From: Minisyncoccota bacterium
GTDB lineage: Bacteria > Patescibacteriota > Minisyncoccia > Phycocordibacterales > UBA2100
DNA length: 35,382 bases
NCBI GenBank assembly: GCA_041675105.1
Contig: JBAYUL010000001.1
Location: 1 to 35,382, forward strand
Direction: 5' to 3'
In this document: one piece after another, positions 3,043 through 10,204 of the stretch
Numbering within the stretch: the stretch's first letter is position 1
How the letters are laid out: every line of letters starts with the position of its first letter
Notes under the pieces: generated by a model
What the model was told of the DNA's origin: nothing
Seen by the model: the letters and a program-made list of their open reading frames with translations, nothing else
The model's database searches: none
Translations under genes and position numbers: made by a program

Positions 3043-3048
3043 GTGCCG

Positions 3049-4149
3049 ATGTCACTCTCAGTCGGTATCGTAGGTCTTCCAAACGTCGGAAAATCGACGC
3101 TTTTTAATGCATTGACGAAGAAAGGAGTACCAGCCGAAAATTATCCCTTCTGCACCATTGACCCCTCGGTCGGCGTCGTAGCGGTACCCGACCATCGTCT
3201 TCAGGCTCTCAGCAAGATGTCGAATACCCAGAAGATCGTTCCCGCTATCGTCGAGTTCGTGGATATCGCGGGTCTGGTCAAAGGAGCTTCGGAAGGGGAA
3301 GGGCTTGGGAATCAATTTTTGCAGCATATCCGCGAAGTGGATGCCATCGCTGAGGTGGTACGCATGTTCGATGACGAAGACGTGCATCACGTAGCGGGGC
3401 AAGTGGATCCGCTTCACGATATCGAGATCATCGATATGGAGCTGGTGCTCGCGGACCTACAATCGGTCGAGAAGCGACTCGACCGTGTTGAGCGCGACTC
3501 AAAGGGTGGAGATAAGGAATTGCTGGCAGAACGCGACGCACTTCTCAAAATAGTGCCCGCCCTTAAGGAAGGAAAGGCGGCGAGAACCGTAGAGCTGAAT
3601 GAAAAGGAACTTGCCGCGCTTCACACGCTCCATTTGCTTACAATGAAGCCGATCTTGTACGTACTCAACAGAAAGGCGGGTACCGTGAATGTGGATGCCG
3701 AGAATGGCGAGCGTTGGCGCGAGCTGAGAGATTTCTTCGACCGCGCACACGCGCAGTATGTGATCGTCGACGCGGGGGTGGAGAGCGATCTTTCCGATGT
3801 TCACGATGACGAGCGGCCTGATTTTCGACGCGAACTCGGAGTAGCGGACGATGGCATCGATGCGCTCATCAAGGGCAGCTATTCGTTGCTGAATCTTATT
3901 TCATACTTTACGACGGGTGAGAAAGAGACGCGCGCATGGACTATTACAAGAGGCGCGACCGCGCCGGAAGCAGGGGCAGCAATTCACACCGATTTTCGCG
4001 ATAAGTTCATCCGCGCAGAGGTGATCGCGTGGGACAAGCTGCTTGAGATCGGCTCATGGAGCGGAGCCCGCGACAAAGGTCAGATCCGTTCTGAAGGAAA
4101 AGAATACGTGGTCCAGGACGGGGATGTGATGGAGTTCAGACACAGCTAG
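3049..4149 (+). CDS. ychF: Ribosome-binding ATPase YchF (Obg-like GTPase family)
   Basis: 'VGIVGLPNVGKSTLFNALT' P-loop, 'FVDIAGLVKGAS' G3 motif and a C-terminal TGS-like 'FIRAEVIAWD...KGQIRSEGKEYVVQDGDVMEFR'. The ORF track starts at GTG 3043. Confidence 0.95.
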   Translation: MSLSVGIVGLPNVGKSTLFNALTKKGVPAENYPFCTIDPSVGVVAVPDHRLQALSKMSNTQKIVPAIVEFVDIAGLVKGASEGEGLGNQFLQHIREVDAIAEVVRMFDDEDVHHVAGQVDPLHDIEIIDMELVLADLQSVEKRLDRVERDSKGGDKELLAERDALLKIVPALKEGKAARTVELNEKELAALHTLHLLTMKPILYVLNRKAGTVNVDAENGERWRELRDFFDRAHAQYVIVDAGVESDLSDVHDDERPDFRRELGVADDGIDALIKGSYSLLNLISYFTTGEKETRAWTITRGATAPEAGAAIHTDFRDKFIRAEVIAWDKLLEIGSWSGARDKGQIRSEGKEYVVQDGDVMEFRHS

Positions 4150-4199
4150 AGAAACATACCGACCCATGGTCGTTGGCGGACGTAGAATATCATTAAGAA

Positions 4200-4224
4200 G
4201 ATCGCCCGCGGGCTGCGGGCGATC
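4200..4224. terminator. Perfect 10-bp hairpin between convergent genes
   Basis: GATCGCCCGC-gggct-GCGGCGATC-type perfect stem (4200-4209 pairs with 4215-4224). On the minus strand it is followed by TTCTTAAT; there is no T-run on the plus strand. Confidence 0.55.
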
Positions 4225-4235
4225 ACGTCGTGACA

Positions 4236-4592
4236 TCAGTCGCGAACATTGGATACGTCGGTGACCCTTGCCTCCACGCGCTGACAAAACCAATGCTCGT
4301 GAATGCGCGCGCTCACGATAAATGTTGCCTCAGGGGCAGCAATGGCAAGGTGCTTCTTGATCTCAGGCACCTCGATCATATAGGCTCTAATATGGAGACG
4401 CATCGCAGTTTTCCAGCCGAGGCACGAGCTTTCCACGAGCCTTGTCTTGTCCCAGTCGATCACACGATCTCTTCGCATCACGCTCGGTGCAACTAGCCAC
4501 GAGTGCGTAAACTGAGGTTCTGAGTCTGGGGGTTGAGCGCAGCTTGTGACGATCAGCGCGATGCTTAGCGACGCTGCTTGGAGTAGGCGCAT
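4236..4592 (-). CDS. Hypothetical lipoprotein
   Basis: N-terminal signal peptide with lipobox 'LIVTS-C' (MRLLQAASLSIALIVTSC). A GGGG SD-like element lies ~9 nt upstream. No recognisable domain. Confidence 0.6.
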   Translation of the reverse strand: MRLLQAASLSIALIVTSCAQPPDSEPQFTHSWLVAPSVMRRDRVIDWDKTRLVESSCLGWKTAMRLHIRAYMIEVPEIKKHLAIAAPEATFIVSARIHEHWFCQRVEARVTDVSNVRD

Positions 4593-4789
4593 GGGAGTTT
4601 CCCCGTATGTTGAGTGATTTCCGCACAGATGAAATCACGACGTGCACAACGTGTCAAGTGTGTGGTGCCTCGTTCGGAGAAGAGGTTGGGTAATGGCCGT
4701 AATTCACCTGCTCGCACTTAAATAGACCGAGGAAAAACCGCGGACTATCGTCAAGCAGTGTGCAATGTATGAGGCAAATGGTGTGAAGG

Positions 4790-4827
4790 CAAAAAATTGG
4801 GTCCCCGGCACGAGCAGCGCCGGGGAC
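4790..4827 (-). terminator. Rho-independent terminator of the OMP gene
   Basis: 9-bp stem GTCCCCGGC / GCCGGGGAC (4801-4809 / 4819-4827). On the minus strand it is followed by CCAATTTTTTG, 25 nt after the stop at 4852. Confidence 0.7.
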
Positions 4828-4851
4828 TTTATTGATTCGCTCGCGCTGCGA

Positions 4852-5586
4852 TCAGAGCGAGAACTTCCAGAGCGCGTAGGCCAGCACCTTGTCGACATCG
4901 GCCTTGATGTCGTGGCGGAACGTGTACAGATTGTCCGCGGTGCTCGACTTGAGCGCTGTGTAGTAGCCCTTCTGGTACTCGAAGCCGAAAACGAGGTAGT
5001 CGAACGGCGCGTACTTGAAGCCGGCGAGCAGCATCGGGCCGACGGCGCCGTAATCGTTGCACGTCGTCGAGTTGTAGCCGGGGAAGCTGAACCGCTCGCA
5101 TGCCGACAGCACGCCGTAGTTCAGGCCGCCGCCGACGTAGAGCGCGTAGCGATTGAAGGCGACGCCGATCGTGCCAGCAGCGGTGCCGGACCACTTGAGC
5201 GAGGTCGAAAGCAGGTCGCTGTAGCCGCAGCCGGTGCACGCGAGTTCCTTGGAACCGGTGATGTTCGACTTCTCGTAGGCGACGAATGCGCCGACGACGA
5301 GCCATTGCCACTGGTAGTCGAATCCGGCGCGGACGCCAAAGAAACGGCCCTTCATGTCGAACGAATTATCGGTGGCCCCGGAGAAGGCCGGGAAGCCGGA
5401 ATAATTGTAACTCGACGTGTCGGAATTGTTGGCGGCCGCGGTGCCGCCGTAGGCGCCGATGGTGATGCCGGTCCAGCTGAACGGAGCAGTGCTCTGATAG
5501 CCTTTGGTGAGGTCGGCGGCGGAAGCGGCGGAACACGAAGCGATGAGCGCAGCGGCCGCAATTGCGGTTTTGAGCCGTGAAAGCAT
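4852..5586 (-). CDS. Outer-membrane beta-barrel protein, Omp25/Omp31-like (OMP_b-brl type)
   Basis: Signal peptide ending 'ASAADL', 'APFSWTGITIGAYGG', repeated amphipathic beta-strand pattern ('GVRAGFDYQW', 'ALYVGGGLNYG', 'LLAGFKYAP', 'LVFGFEYQKG') and an aromatic C-terminus 'LWKFSL'. A GGGGGA SD is present. Codon third positions are strongly G/C. Confidence 0.8.
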   Translation of the reverse strand: MLSRLKTAIAAAALIASCSAASAADLTKGYQSTAPFSWTGITIGAYGGTAAANNSDTSSYNYSGFPAFSGATDNSFDMKGRFFGVRAGFDYQWQWLVVGAFVAYEKSNITGSKELACTGCGYSDLLSTSLKWSGTAAGTIGVAFNRYALYVGGGLNYGVLSACERFSFPGYNSTTCNDYGAVGPMLLAGFKYAPFDYLVFGFEYQKGYYTALKSSTADNLYTFRHDIKADVDKVLAYALWKFSL

Positions 5587-5711
5587 GCTATTTCCCCCAT
5601 ATGGAGTACGTTAAGATCAGGAAGCCGGGATGGCAGTCCAGCGTCTATTATAGCATATCATTGACATAGCGTCAATAATCACGCCTGCAAAGTTAGCTCG
5701 CAATAGAGCGC

Positions 5712-5717
5712 TATACT
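5712..5717 (+). promoter_or_regulatory. -10-like box TATACT, 6 nt upstream of ATG 5724
   Basis: gcgcTATACTagtggcATG. Confidence 0.4.
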
Positions 5718-5723
5718 AGTGGC

Positions 5724-6677
5724 ATGGAAAAACCAAAAGTAACACCTAAGGACTTCGTGTTCTGGGTCGGGGCTATGGCCGCGCTCTACGGCGGCGTCGT
5801 TTCTTTTATCACCCTTATATTCGATTACATAAATCACGCATATCCGAATCCTGTGACGGGTGGGTATTACTATGATCCGTATTCGAGCAGCATCAGTTAT
5901 GAGACGGCGTCTCTCATCGTGCTCGCACCTGTATTCCTATTGCTCATGCGTCTCATACGCCGCGATATCGCGAACGATCCGACGAGGGGCGATATATGGA
6001 TCCGTCGCTGGGCACTTTTTCTCACACTGTTTCTCGCGGGTGCGACAATGGTCGTGGACCTCATCGTCCTACTGAATGCGTATCTGCAAGGAGAGGACCT
6101 CACGGTCGGTTTCTTGCTGAAAGTGCTCACGGTACTTCTCGTCGCCGGCCTTGGCTTCATGCACTTCATGGCGGATCTGTGGGGGTATTGGGAACGTGAG
6201 CGAGCGCGTGCGCGAATGGTCAATTGGGGAGTCGCCGTACTTGTTGTCTTTACGATAGTCGCCGGATTCTTTATTGTCGGCACTCCACAGCAAATGCGTC
6301 ATCTGAAACAGGACGCGCAGCGAGTACAGGATCTCCAGAATCTACAGTGGCAGGTGGTGAGTTATTGGCAACAGAAGCAAAAGCTTCCGACCACGCTCGA
6401 GCAGTTGAACGATCCGATAACGAACTACATCGTGCCGGTGGATCCGCAGACGAGGGAATCATACGAATACAAGTCAACGGGCGCGCTTGCGTTCCAGCTG
6501 TGCGCGACGTTCGCAGAGGTCGGCAACAGTGCGAATGATGGGCGCTCTGTCGCCAAGCCGGTAAGCGTCGACGGGGAGATCGCGCAAGACAATTGGCAGC
6601 ACGCGGCCGGTGATGTGTGTTTCGACCGCACCATAGATCCTGAGCGCTACCCTCCATTTAGCAAACAGACAAAATAG
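5724..6677 (+). CDS. DUF5671-type multi-pass membrane protein with an extracytoplasmic C-terminal domain
   Basis: 'KDFVFWVGAMAALYGGVVSFITLIFDYINHAYPN...YYYDPYSS...IRRWALFLTLFLAGATMVVDLIVLL' matches the DUF5671 pattern common in Parcubacteria, recalled from memory and not searched. Confidence 0.75.
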   Translation: MEKPKVTPKDFVFWVGAMAALYGGVVSFITLIFDYINHAYPNPVTGGYYYDPYSSSISYETASLIVLAPVFLLLMRLIRRDIANDPTRGDIWIRRWALFLTLFLAGATMVVDLIVLLNAYLQGEDLTVGFLLKVLTVLLVAGLGFMHFMADLWGYWERERARARMVNWGVAVLVVFTIVAGFFIVGTPQQMRHLKQDAQRVQDLQNLQWQVVSYWQQKQKLPTTLEQLNDPITNYIVPVDPQTRESYEYKSTGALAFQLCATFAEVGNSANDGRSVAKPVSVDGEIAQDNWQHAAGDVCFDRTIDPERYPPFSKQTK

Positions 6678-6699: not shown

Positions 6700-6724
6700 A
6701 AACGCCTCTTTTAGAGGCGTTTTG
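6700..6724 (+). terminator. Rho-independent terminator
   Basis: AAACGCCTCT-ttt-AGAGGCGTTT perfect stem followed by T residues, 23 nt after the stop at 6677. Confidence 0.8.
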
Positions 6725-6820
6725 GCCGTGATACGCTGGTACGAACATGAAGTACCCCGGTACCACAACCTCGCAGGCTCGGTTGGCTACGGGGCAGGCG
6801 ACCGCAAGACCAAATGTAAT

Positions 6821-9800
6821 ATGAAATACGATCACAAGTCGATTGAAAAGAAGTGGCAAAAGTTCTGGAGTGAGAACAAGATATATACGACGCCGGATAG
6901 CGCTCCGGGAAAGGACAATTTTTATCTGCTGGTAGAGTTCCCATACCCGTCTGGCAACCTCCACGTCGGTCACTGGTACGCGTTCGCGGTACCCGATATC
7001 CTTGCACGTTATGAGAGGATGAGGGGCAAAAACGTGATGTATCCCATCGGCTTTGATGCGTTCGGTCTCCCCGCGGAAAATGCGGCCATCAAGAATAAGC
7101 TCAATCCGCGCGATTGGACGGAGAAAAATATCGCGTATATGAAAAAGCAAATTGAGTCGATGGGGACATCGTTCGATTGGTCGCGGGAAGTGTCTACCAT
7201 CGACCCGGCGTACTACAAGTGGACGCAATGGCTTTTTCTCCAGCTCTACAAAAAAGGCTTGGTGTATCAGAAGGAAACCGCGGTCAACTGGTGTCCCGTG
7301 GACAAGACGGTGCTCGCCAATGAGCAGGTGATCGACGGCAAGTGTGACCGCTGCGGGTCGGAGGTAGAACAGCGGCAAATGCTCCAGTGGAATATCAAGA
7401 TCACTGATTACGCCGATAGACTCATCGACGACCTTGCGGCACTCGATTGGCCGGAGCAGATAAAGGAATCGCAGCGCAATTGGATAGGCCGCAGCGAGGG
7501 TGCTGAGATCGATTTTGCGTTAGACCTTGGAGCAAACGATGGCTCGCGATTTCTACTTCTGCACGGTCGCCAAGGGTCGCCTGAAGCCAACTTCTTTCCG
7601 TGGCTGAAGTCCGAACTTGAGGCAAGGGGCTATGAAGTAGAAGTGCCGCTTTTACCCAACACCGCTGAACCAAACGACGAAGAACAAGCAGATTTTGTTG
7701 TGAAGAACTGCAGGATAGATGAGCGGACTGTGATCATTGGCCACTCATTCGGAGGGGTGGTCGCAATGCGCCTCTTGGAGCGGGGACACAAGGCGCGTCG
7801 CGTCGTGTTCGTCGCGACGCCATGCAGCGGCGAATTTCTTGATGGGAAGGAGCGTCCGTCGGTCAAAGCGGCGATACTGAAGGGATTCGATTTTTTGGCC
7901 GTGCGGAAGAACGCTGACACTATTCAGGTGTTACCGGATGAATCTGATCCTGTCGTGCCCTTCGCTGACGCGGAGCTGCTCGCAAAAGAGACGGGCGGTA
8001 TGCTGGTGCGCGGCAAGGGCACCGAATACCATTTCACCGCGAAAGTAGAGCCGGATGTGCTCATGATGTGCGTCCCAACGATACGCGTATTCACGACGCG
8101 GCCGGACACGCTCTTCGGGGCGACGTATCTGGTGCTCGCGCCTGAGCATCCGTGGGTAACACTCGCGCTCGCGCACAAGACCGTTCTGAAGAACAACGAC
8201 GAGGTTCGAGCGTACGTTGACCGGACGGAGAGGATGTCCGACATGGACCGGCAAACGACCAGAGAGAAGACAGGCGTCCAGCTCAAGGGCGTGGACGCTA
8301 TTAATCCCGCAAACGGCGAAAAGATCCCGCTTTATATTGCCGACTACGTACTCGGGCACTACGGCACCGGCGCCATCATGGCAGTACCCGCGCACGACGA
8401 GCGCGATTTCGAATTCGCGAAAAAGTTTGATCTTCCGATAAAGCCCGTCGTAGAACCACAATATGTCGGGAAAGGGGAGGGTGAACCCAAACAAGGCGAA
8501 GACTTTGTAAAACGTAACGCGGTATGCGTTGTTGTCCGAAATCCGAAGGACGACACGTATCTTTGCATAAGCTGGAAGACAATGCTCATGCACGGGCTTG
8601 TGACGGGAGGCATTGAAGATGGCGAAGATCTTGTGGAAGCGGCGAAACGTGAAGTGCGGGAGGAGACAGGGTATAAGAATTTACGACTTGTCTGGAATCC
8701 TGGCATTGCGAATCACACTTTGTTCTATCATCGGGTAAAAAAACAGAATCGGTGGGCGCGATTTACGAACATATTCTTTGAGCTCGAGAACGACGAGCGT
8801 GACCCTATTGATCCCAAAGAGGAAGCGTTGCATGAAGTACTGTGGCTCAAGAGAGACAAGCTGAAGGATTTCTTTTCGGTATATGAAGGACGCTTCATCC
8901 TTGACCTGCTTGATCATCCCGACTATGTCCACACGGATGCGGGCGTGCTCCACAATTCCGGTGAGTTCGACTGGATGGGCTCCGAGGAGGCCAAGAAAGT
9001 AATGACAGGACGATTCGGACGCAAGAAAACGACGTACAAGCTTCGCGACTGGATAGTCTCGCGTCAGCGCTACTGGGGTGTGCCGATACCGATGATCCAT
9101 TGCGAGAAATGCGGCAACCAGCCAGTGCCCGATGAGCAGCTACCCGTGCTTCTACCCGATGTTGAAGATTACCTACCGGAAGGGAGCGGGAAATCGCCGC
9201 TTGCCAAAGTGAAGGATTTCGTAGAGATACTGTGTCCGCGGTGCGGAGGTAGAGCGCAGCGCGAAACAGATACGCTCGATACATTCGTCGACTCATCGTG
9301 GTACTTTTTGCGTTATCTCGACGCGAACAACGCGGACGAATTTGCGGCGCGAGAGAAACAAGGGATGTGGATGCCGGTGAATATGTACAGCGGGGGAGCC
9401 GAGCATACAACGATGCATCTTTTGTATAGCCGCTTTTGGCACAAAGCGCTCTTCGACATCGGGCTTGTCGGTGATGCGGAGCCGTACGCCCATCGTGTGA
9501 ATCATGGTCTTGTTCTGGGGCCTGACGGACAAAAGATGAGCAAATCAAAGGGCAATGTGCTTGATCCGGACGAGGTGGTGGAGAGGCTCGGAGCGGACAC
9601 GGTACGCATGTACCTTGCCTTTATGGGCCCGTACACGGGTGGAGCCAGCTATCCCTGGAATCCCGACGGGGTCGTGGGAGTGCGACGATTTCTCGAACGT
9701 GTGGCGCGGACCGAAGAGTACGTCCAGAGCTCGCACGTCGACGAATTGGATATGATATTGAACAAGACCATTCAGAAAGTCGGGGACGATATTTCAGTCT

Positions 9801-10204
9801 TTAAATTCAACACGGCAATCAGTCAGCTGATGATTCTGATGAATGCTATCGAGAAGACAAAGAAACTGGGGACAGACCAATGGAAACTCTTGCTGCACAT
9901 TCTTGCTCCGTTCGCACCTCACCTTGCTGAAGAGTTGTGGCATGTACTCGGCGGAACGGCATCCATTCATCTGGAGTCGTGGCCGAAGTATGATCCTTCC
10001 AAAACAGTCGATGACGAGATCGTTTTGGCGGTGCAAGTGGACGGGAAGACGCGAGGTGAAGTGAGGGTGAAAGCAGATGCAGATAAAGCCACTATCGAAA
10101 CGGCTGCGCGCGAAGCGGTCGCATCCAGACTGGAAGGGAAGACCGTGACGAAAACGATCGTCGTGCCAAAGCGGCTCGTGAACTTCGTGCTTAGCGCCTC
10201 GTGA
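6821..10204 (+). CDS. leuS: Leucyl-tRNA synthetase, unusually long (1127 aa) with two nested extra domains
   Basis: 'MKYDHKSIEKKWQKFW' canonical N-terminus at ATG 6821; the ORF-track TTG 6722 extension has no homology-like content. Motifs seen: HIGH 'HVGH', 'NWIGRSEGAEIDF', CP1 'TTRPDTLFGATY' and 'AHDERDFEFAKKF', 'YKLRDWIVSRQRYWGVPIP', KMSKS 'KMSKSKGN'. Confidence 0.95.
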   Translation: MKYDHKSIEKKWQKFWSENKIYTTPDSAPGKDNFYLLVEFPYPSGNLHVGHWYAFAVPDILARYERMRGKNVMYPIGFDAFGLPAENAAIKNKLNPRDWTEKNIAYMKKQIESMGTSFDWSREVSTIDPAYYKWTQWLFLQLYKKGLVYQKETAVNWCPVDKTVLANEQVIDGKCDRCGSEVEQRQMLQWNIKITDYADRLIDDLAALDWPEQIKESQRNWIGRSEGAEIDFALDLGANDGSRFLLLHGRQGSPEANFFPWLKSELEARGYEVEVPLLPNTAEPNDEEQADFVVKNCRIDERTVIIGHSFGGVVAMRLLERGHKARRVVFVATPCSGEFLDGKERPSVKAAILKGFDFLAVRKNADTIQVLPDESDPVVPFADAELLAKETGGMLVRGKGTEYHFTAKVEPDVLMMCVPTIRVFTTRPDTLFGATYLVLAPEHPWVTLALAHKTVLKNNDEVRAYVDRTERMSDMDRQTTREKTGVQLKGVDAINPANGEKIPLYIADYVLGHYGTGAIMAVPAHDERDFEFAKKFDLPIKPVVEPQYVGKGEGEPKQGEDFVKRNAVCVVVRNPKDDTYLCISWKTMLMHGLVTGGIEDGEDLVEAAKREVREETGYKNLRLVWNPGIANHTLFYHRVKKQNRWARFTNIFFELENDERDPIDPKEEALHEVLWLKRDKLKDFFSVYEGRFILDLLDHPDYVHTDAGVLHNSGEFDWMGSEEAKKVMTGRFGRKKTTYKLRDWIVSRQRYWGVPIPMIHCEKCGNQPVPDEQLPVLLPDVEDYLPEGSGKSPLAKVKDFVEILCPRCGGRAQRETDTLDTFVDSSWYFLRYLDANNADEFAAREKQGMWMPVNMYSGGAEHTTMHLLYSRFWHKALFDIGLVGDAEPYAHRVNHGLVLGPDGQKMSKSKGNVLDPDEVVERLGADTVRMYLAFMGPYTGGASYPWNPDGVVGVRRFLERVARTEEYVQSSHVDELDMILNKTIQKVGDDISVFKFNTAISQLMILMNAIEKTKKLGTDQWKLLLHILAPFAPHLAEELWHVLGGTASIHLESWPKYDPSKTVDDEIVLAVQVDGKTRGEVRVKADADKATIETAAREAVASRLEGKTVTKTIVVPKRLVNFVLSAS
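7523..8077 (+). other. In-frame insertion in LeuRS: YdeN/RBBP9-type alpha/beta serine hydrolase domain (~185 aa)
   Basis: 'FLLLHGRQGSPEANFFPWLK', nucleophile elbow 'IIGHSFGG' (Ser codon 7745-7747), 'DESDPVVPF' and 'EYHF'. Lies between the LeuRS motifs 'GAEIDF' and 'IRVFTTRPDT'. Confidence 0.8.
8450..8935 (+). other. In-frame insertion in LeuRS: Nudix hydrolase domain (~150 aa)
   Basis: Perfect Nudix box G-x5-E-x7-REVxEExGY: 'GGIEDGEDLVEAAKREVREETGY' (8606-8674). Lies between the LeuRS motifs 'AHDERDFEFAKKFDLPIKPV' and 'GVLHNSGEFDWMGSEEAKK'. Confidence 0.85.

Follow-up and report, generated by a model that had tools for sequence, protein, structure and literature searches.

A predicted Omp25/Omp31-type beta-barrel, very probably a resident gene product, in a Candidatus Kaiserbacteria genome

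A gene for a predicted outer-membrane-type beta-barrel lies in a genome of the Candidate Phyla Radiation (CPR, or Patescibacteria), bacteria that are treated as monoderms without outer-membrane biogenesis, and it is highly probable that the barrel is exported, maintained by selection and an established resident of that genome. The DNA in question, referred to below as the window, is a stretch of 35,382 nucleotides from a Minisyncoccota bacterium (GenBank assembly GCA_041675105.1, contig JBAYUL010000001.1, positions 1 to 35,382) and is one contig (C1) out of the 120 that make up an 834-kb genome of 85.7% completeness. Within it, between the core gene ychF and a gene for a DUF5671 membrane protein, an open reading frame (ORF) on the reverse strand specifies a protein of 244 amino acids (aa) which, judged by sequence matches and a structural model, belongs as a divergent member to the Omp25/Omp31 lineage of small barrels (PF13505). 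No published description of barrels of the outer-membrane protein (OMP) type in CPR bacteria was found in the literature.

The explanation that we favor is that a Hyphomicrobiales-type diderm donated the barrel gene to CPR bacteria long ago, and that it would now be a resident accessory gene of the Kaiserbacteria pool, held in a fixed slot between ychF and the DUF5671 gene, whose functional product is exported through Sec, folds independently of the beta-barrel assembly machinery (BAM) and is linked to peptidoglycan. Taken as a whole, and leaving aside the choice of target membrane, this account seems to us moderately probable, with an old transfer from Hyphomicrobiales-like diderms the likely ultimate origin. 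We present below the protein and its signals, the envelope in which it would have to act, and the evidence on its residence, origin and selection, weighing other explanations where the evidence touches them.

The protein, its family and its control signals

The 244-aa ORF had been singled out in a preliminary description made from the DNA letters without database searches, and it is real, the start given there (4790) covering the terminator as well (Table 1). The Sec signal and FSWTG box then pointed out are likewise present: the protein begins MLSRLKTAIAAAALIASCSAASA, ending in an A-x-A cleavage site before ADL, and PFSWTG occupies residues 34-39. The ASAAD cleavage region is invariant across the alignment with family members, and 8 of 10 members of the CPR clade keep AAD, ATD or AAN at the mature N-terminus at an overall identity of only roughly 30%. 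Cys18 of the signal peptide offers a candidate alternative lipobox (IAS before the Cys). The gene also has the Shine-Dalgarno (SD) site and strong terminator ascribed to it; SD sites resembling GGAGG stand at the equivalent position in homologous loci, and equivalent terminator hairpins lie 3' of the homologues in three of these (L023, L024 and L027). An aromatic C-terminus, also reported at the time, needs correction, the chain ending in LWKFSL with Phe at -3 and Leu as the last residue. C-termini in the CPR clade end in F in six cases and otherwise in four, and some bona fide PF13505 members extend past the Phe.

As to the Omp25/Omp31 assignment of the preliminary description, what upholds it is a set of phmmer matches to PF13505 proteins together with the predicted fold, the PF13505 model itself being silent. 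That Pfam model (gathering threshold 28.7 bits) does not match the barrel protein even at E <= 10, nor anything in a six-frame translation of its own genome at E <= 1, whereas 9 of its 10 CPR-clade relatives match it, the best with an E-value of 6e-23. A phmmer search of 5.8 billion proteins gave 27 non-self matches at E <= 1e-3, of which 25 carry PF13505; these matches, described as ‘outer membrane immunogenic protein’, are 27-36% identical to the query (E 1e-12 to 1e-6), and all the named ones outside CPR belong to Hyphomicrobiales (Bradyrhizobium, Azorhizobium and relatives). A second HMMER search, of 1.84 billion representatives, returned 811 matches at E <= 1e-3, and E-values to PF13505 proteins over both searches span 1e-12 to 1e-29. 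The blocks retained in the alignment are ASAAD, FSWTG-Y-G, G-NYQ, V-G-E, Y-GG, EY and a terminal Y-F. Pfam and NCBIfam searches with the barrel protein produced only sub-threshold matches to MOSP_C and Rck, which were not used.

The structural check bears out the barrel, at the level of prediction. AlphaFold2, run with the family alignment, models eight long antiparallel strands with a mean predicted local distance difference test (pLDDT) score of 84.3 and a predicted template modeling (pTM) score of 0.75. The top Foldseek matches of this model in the PDB are all outer-membrane barrels (Ail, OmpX, OmpA, OprG, OmpW, NspA and OpcA; E 1e-6 to 1e-5, probability 1.0, TM-scores 0.3-0.6), and a profile search of PDB sequences recovers the same small-barrel families as weak matches. 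Along the predicted strands, mean Kyte-Doolittle hydropathy is +1.45 on the outward face and -0.30 on the inward face, and the outward belt of the window protein is comparable to those of the CPR clade (+1.40) and of non-CPR homologues (+1.55). Two cysteine pairs map to predicted hairpins (Table 1). A cross-strand disulfide between Cys163 and Cys176, a pair common to the relatives P0031 and P0032, is likely in the model, and the four loop cysteines, which both relatives share, suggest disulfides in an exposed extracytoplasmic region.

The gene has its own strong predicted promoter, with a conserved palindrome. A consensus scan of positions 4100-5800 found a single promoter-like site, at 5647-5675, and the TTGACG...TATAAT arrangement is kept upstream of the homologues in L023, L024, L027 and L028. 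The palindrome TTGAC-N5-GTCAA occurs at all five homologues in the same locus, with an N4 variant before the homologue in G379, a genome of another family of the same order; the 834-kb genome contains 2 copies where about 0.6 would be expected. In L023, the annotated 278-aa P0032 (10001-10837) probably starts about 34 codons early, given that its annotated 5' end takes in the conserved promoter and palindrome (10019-10033) and that its signal peptide begins at an internal start. The only other copy of the palindrome in the window's genome (C6:7358-7372) sits between a small membrane-protein gene (7005-7319, reverse strand) and a gene for a TrmB-family regulator (7475-8260, forward strand; PF01978, E 4e-16), and the latter protein is a candidate controller of the barrel promoter.

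Table 1. Coordinates of the barrel gene, its signals and its flanks in the window.
Feature	Position	Strand	Remarks
ychF, left flank, conserved core gene	3043..4149	+	Pfam YchF-GTPase_C, MMR_HSR1; 70-84% identity in congeners
1.57-kb ychF-DUF5671 segment	4150..5723	.	Most congeners have 20-110 bp here (tblastn synteny, 19 congener loci)
Intrinsic terminator	4791..4827	-	Stem 4801-4827, 11 bp, 9 G-C pairs, then T6
Barrel coding sequence	4852..5586	-	244 aa, ORF; predicted exported 8-stranded beta-barrel, divergent Omp25/Omp31 (PF13505) lineage
Cys163 to Cys176 codons	5059..5100	-	Residues symmetric across predicted hairpin L3
Cys117-x-x-Cys120 codons, tip of predicted hairpin L2	5227..5238	-	C-x-G-C-G invariant in closest subfamily
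Mature N-terminal Ala-Asp codons	5512..5517	-	Read from sequence; peptidoglycan-tether motif in Hyphomicrobiales
Sec signal peptide codons, residues 1-23	5518..5586	-	Read from sequence; ends ASA before AD
Shine-Dalgarno GGGGGA	5593..5598	-	7 nt before ATG
Sigma-70-type promoter, TTGACG, 17-nt spacer with TG (extended -10), TATAAT	5647..5675	-	11/12 consensus matches
Palindrome TTGAC-N5-GTCAA, candidate operator	5661..5675	.	Read from sequence; overlaps -35 hexamer
DUF5671 membrane protein gene, right flank	5724..6677	+	Pfam PF18920; in 36/40 congeners; divergent from barrel gene

The envelope, possible peptidoglycan attachment and the target membrane

An outer membrane and a BAM insertase form the cellular setting of functional OMPs, and genome searches did not find that setting in the host of the barrel gene. 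The CPR context without BAM that the preliminary description had assumed thus holds for this 0.83-Mb Candidatus Kaiserbacteria genome, NCBI applying that name to the YchF proteins of its congeners, and the monoderm framing is a reasonable one. Omp85/BamA (PF01103) was not found in the genome itself, in 60 congeners (of which 40 reach 90% completeness or more) or in the carriers G104, G106, G070 and G379, in searches whose positive controls responded, and neither LpxC nor LptD was found in the genome, at its 85.7% completeness. With no Omp85/BamA in the genome and its congeners, the barrel would have to fold unassisted by BAM; small 8-stranded barrels can do so in vitro.

In Hyphomicrobiales, L,D-transpeptidases attach barrels of the Omp25 type to peptidoglycan through the mature N-terminal Ala-Asp, the acceptor being meso-diaminopimelate (PMC12729407). 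The window's genome encodes a single YkuD domain (C4:4256-5869, reverse strand), fused to a Peptidase_S11 domain behind a membrane anchor. By analogy with Brucella Omp25, the mature Ala-Asp N-terminus of the barrel would be linked to peptidoglycan by this lone YkuD L,D-transpeptidase, to which the fused Peptidase_S11 domain, a D,D-carboxypeptidase, may supply tetrapeptide donors. Retention of Ala-Asp together with the presence of the transpeptidase makes a wall-tethered barrel plausible, and we put the tether forward tentatively, at somewhat less than even chances.

Since its hydrophobic belt is kept, the barrel must sit in a lipid layer, and the question becomes which. Our first choice of target would be a diderm host's outer membrane where the two cells attach, and our second either the membrane of the symbiont itself or an outer layer not yet described; that the barrel enters a host membrane is, all the same, unlikely. 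In its fullest form, this proposal would have the protein act as a rivet, its N-terminus fixed on the symbiont's peptidoglycan and its host-derived barrel inserted without BAM in the outer membrane of an alphaproteobacterial host, regulated through the palindrome and diversifying with host range, a combination that is a shade more doubtful still. A weaker version has some CPR cells building an undescribed outer lipid layer.

The alternative that fares best concerns this same choice and places the barrel in the envelope of the producing cell, either on the outer face of the cytoplasmic membrane, as a tether between membrane and peptidoglycan, or in an undescribed outer lipid layer free of BAM and lipopolysaccharide (LPS). 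The retained belt, the Ala-Asp N-terminus in a genome that encodes an L,D-transpeptidase, and codon optimization of a kind that suggests an abundant structural protein all agree with it. Presence of the gene in only about 3% of the species of the genus is nonetheless odd for a structural part of the envelope, no Omp85, LptD or LpxC was found in the genome, and monoderm is how the small number of CPR cells imaged so far have been described (PMC8871954); on balance we regard this placement as possible but rather unlikely.

Residence in the slot, selection and origin

The evidence that the gene is a settled resident comes in part from other assemblies. The Logan contig L002 (run SRR31375405, 2490 bp), an independent assembly of a different strain, corresponds to positions 3434-5923 of the window at 98.15% identity, with 46 mismatches and no gaps, and runs from ychF through a 118-aa ORF and the barrel gene into the DUF5671 gene. 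Five other assemblies in all have the order ychF, barrel, DUF5671 (L002, L023, L024, L027 and L028). P0032, labeled ‘opacity protein-like surface antigen’, lies in a 201-kb Joint Genome Institute (JGI) contig (L023) with ychF on one side, DUF5671-leuS on the other and its orientation unchanged; P0265 (L024, congener G104) occupies the same slot, as do P0030 and P0280, 73% identical to each other, on Logan contigs L027 and L028. The genomic slot was read for these four proteins, P0031, P0088, P0097 and P0098 being available as protein sequences only, with no organism assigned. The closest relatives of the window protein in the exhaustive HMMER search are P0030 (38% identity), P0032 (36%) and P0031 (35%), within a range of 29-38% for its CPR-clade relatives, and about 36% is the highest identity reached by any diderm protein in either the 5.8 billion or the 1.84 billion sequences searched. 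One relative carries the NCBI label ‘outer membrane beta-barrel protein [Patescibacteria group bacterium]’.

In a tree of 155 sequences, the same-slot proteins and P0031 form one clade (SH-like approximate likelihood ratio test, SH-aLRT, 95), whose sister group (support 86) includes P0047 (MDB5225359.1), encoded on a 192-kb contig that NCBI assigns to Candidatus Adlerbacteria. The window protein alone, used as a query against 60 relatives, found nothing, and the carriers G104, G106 and G070 surfaced only with a profile built from the closest subfamily. The free tree suggested that the G106 and G070 copies were independent acquisitions; this was not upheld, a constrained tree that groups all 12 CPR-candidate rows being better by 34.9 log-likelihood units (approximately unbiased, AU, test p 0.78), in a comparison that long branches make weak. 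A common origin for all the CPR copies is accordingly not rejected by these sequences, though more than one acquisition may have taken place.

Substitution patterns were compared at two scales. Between P0280 and P0030 the ratio of nonsynonymous to synonymous substitution rates (dN/dS) is 0.22 and ORFs are intact at all the barrel loci seen; to judge from these alignments, the gene is under purifying selection while diverging quickly. Between the window and the L002 strain, the barrel gene has 1 difference in 735 sites, against 1.2-4.2% in the flanks, and no synonymous change in 177 synonymous sites, against a synonymous divergence (dS) of 0.025 in the neighboring ORF and 0.16 in ychF. Of the 46 mismatches between the two strains, 23 cluster in a 175-bp tract of ychF (3942-4116), a pattern suggestive of a recombination tract next to the variable slot.

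The slot itself is an insertion hot spot, filled by unrelated genes in other congeneric species, and one might take the barrel gene for a neutral passenger there, an old import drifting toward loss with no current function. Its patchy distribution, the differing contents of the ychF-DUF5671 gap elsewhere, and the eroded Pfam signature and terminal Phe of the window copy would fit such an origin. We nevertheless find a passenger very improbable in view of the intact ORFs and low dN/dS, the conserved promoter, SD site and terminator, the preserved amphipathic belt, and an extreme codon adaptation combined with a lack of synonymous change between strains.

G/C-rich third codon positions had also been noted in the preliminary description, and the fraction of G or C there (GC3) is indeed 0.849, compared with 0.61 in ychF, 0.63 in the DUF5671 gene and 0.64 in leuS. 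The genome averages 0.645 +/- 0.063, and none of the 616 long ORFs compared has as high a value as the barrel gene. The excess is wholly C-ending, with C at third positions (C3) reaching 0.59, the genome maximum (genome 0.34 +/- 0.057), and G (G3) at 0.26, below average. The codons chosen (CTC, ACC, GCC, ATC, AAG, TTC, TAC, GAC, CCG) track the genome's EF-Tu and not the genome average, and a codon adaptation index (CAI) built on EF-Tu, RpoC and five ribosomal proteins puts the gene at rank 4 of 742, ranks 1, 2 and 8 being taken by reference genes themselves. Given the agreement with EF-Tu codon by codon and the CAI rank, we reject the notion that high GC3 here means foreign DNA, and the foreign codon usage once supposed gives way to a bias that follows the host's own highly expressed genes. 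Among homologues, GC3 follows the host: it is 0.56 in the 46%-GC G379 genome (neighboring genes 0.35-0.47) and 0.75 in the 60%-GC contig L023, where it is not elevated over the neighbors, and five CPR barrel genes other than that of the window (L023-L028) lie at 0.75-0.85. Ribosomal-protein genes have only average GC3 (0.58-0.72), which leaves the link of the bias to expression suggestive and not proven; as a whole, codon usage suggests selection in a highly expressed resident gene as a better fit than a donor signature.

These data bear on the proposal of a recent import from a high-GC diderm such as Bradyrhizobium, in which GC3 would be an unameliorated donor signature in a gene still without a settled role. 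The gap between a GC3 of 0.85 and the genome mean of 0.645, the absence of the 1.57-kb segment from the closest congeners, the exclusively Hyphomicrobiales origin of the named non-CPR homologues and the near-identity of the barrel gene between strains amid more divergent flanks, as a recent sweep could yield, are all as it would have them. Against these stand the ceiling of about 36% identity to any diderm protein and the fact that the nearest relatives are CPR proteins of one clade, encoded in this very slot behind a shared promoter palindrome. Codon choice does not agree either, Leu CTC being preferred over CTG in a usage that follows native EF-Tu, whereas Bradyrhizobium OMP genes (one locus) have a GC3 of 0.74-0.76 that is below that of their neighbors and contain numerous GGT, GCT and GTT codons, in contrast to the barrel gene. 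The recent horizontal acquisition envisaged in the preliminary description is, on this evidence, hardly credible, best matches among CPR proteins being part of a refuting condition stated there. Its other suggestion, an assembly or binning chimera joining a proteobacterial fragment into a CPR contig, can be set aside despite the local rise in GC (0.61-0.65 against 0.53-0.55 in the flanks), given that L002 spans both junctions gap-free from ychF to DUF5671 and homologues lie between the same genes in four more assemblies, namely the JGI contig, G104 and two further Logan contigs.

Several points weigh against the resident, tethered barrel that we favor. Searches turned up 3 carriers among 115 congeners, 1 among 400 genomes from the order and 0 among 400 from the class, a rarity that makes the gene dispensable. 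Its carriers are interspersed with empty-site species on a tree of ychF and DUF5671, which implies numerous losses or else transfer between species of the genus. The OMP genes of Bradyrhizobium, too, are C3-rich and G3-poor, so codon usage alone does not exclude a foreign signature. The PF13505 model gives the window protein no score and its Phe is not the last residue. Identity in the belt differs little from that in the distal half (0.34 vs 0.25), and a claim that the loops evolve much faster than the belt was dropped for this reason. At 85.7% completeness of the genome, the absence of BamA rests partly on congeners.

The remaining observations concern the surroundings of the gene and its copies elsewhere. 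The 1.57 kb at 4150-5723 is extra DNA, given the short gap in most congeners, and shows no DNA similarity to their empty sites. Its second ORF (118 aa, 4236-4592, reverse strand), between the barrel gene and ychF, has a lipoprotein-like start (MRLLQAASLSIALIVTS before C) and a hairpin at 4200-4224; no Pfam match was found for it and no homologue in congener loci. It is intact in the L002 strain (3 nonsynonymous and 2 synonymous differences), where the Logan gene caller predicted only its last 80 aa. In other congeners, the gap contains an IS200-like Y1 transposase (PF01797; L014 2434-3159), a 202-aa protein of no assigned family (L021 2445-3053) or a small coiled-coil protein common to two loci (L008 1219-1494 and L019 1220-1489). 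Beyond the DUF5671 gene, the leucyl-tRNA synthetase (LeuRS, 6722-10204) is 1160 aa long and includes a block of about 185 aa (residues about 268-453) that is missing in the congeners L008, L016, L018 and L022. Three more CPR barrel genes of the PF13505 type occur at other loci (L025 1486-2220 in G106, L026 107-820 in G070 and L034 1420-2094 in G379), with GC3 above most or all of the neighbors of each; the G379 gene adjoins smpB and has TTGAC-N4-GTCAA upstream, and the G106 and G070 copies have no palindrome.

Implications and comparison with known barrels

If OMP-type barrels are conserved, selected, codon-optimized and equipped with a regulated promoter of their own in CPR bacteria, they would have to fold without BAM, or enter the membrane of another cell, or else the current model of the CPR envelope is incomplete. 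Hyphomicrobiales ancestry would make that order a candidate host group for Kaiserbacteria, and a gene for a 244-aa protein with a defined promoter, a palindrome and a candidate TrmB-type regulator offers an assayable handle on episymbiont attachment. More generally, a GC3-rich island in a CPR genome is not necessarily a recent import.

Among known systems, the nearest is the Omp25/Omp31 family of Brucella and other Hyphomicrobiales, the ‘outer membrane immunogenic protein’ (PF13505, COG3637), whose members are likewise about 240 aa long and have in common with the window protein a signal ending in A-x-A before A-D, an FSWTG box after an N-terminal linker, eight amphipathic strands (predicted in the window protein), and the blocks G-x-N/D-Y-Q, V-x-G-x-E, Y-V-x-G-G and E-Y. 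The window protein differs from them in being 27-36% identical and without a Pfam match, in a host in which no BamA, LPS or outer membrane genes were found; it has the Arg residues of GT-x-RGR and the GWT-x-GGG-x-EY block replaced, has gained four loop cysteines, and carries its Phe at -3 and not at the end.

Solved small outer-membrane barrels, among them Yersinia Ail (3qra, 3qrc), E. coli OmpX (1qj9), the OmpA transmembrane domain, P. aeruginosa OprG (2x27), OmpW and NspA, have the topology predicted here, with eight antiparallel strands connected on one side by short turns and on the opposite side by long hairpins. Identities of 8-18% and TM-scores of 0.3-0.6 make this a likeness of general fold only, and the predicted strands of the window protein, at about 22 residues, are much longer. 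The CPR relatives P0030, P0280, P0032, P0265 and P0047, finally, are of the same clade as the window protein, four of them in the ychF/DUF5671 slot, and share with it the promoter palindrome and the CxGC loop motif, the lineage of the window being alone in having the additional 118-aa ORF on the ychF side of the barrel gene.

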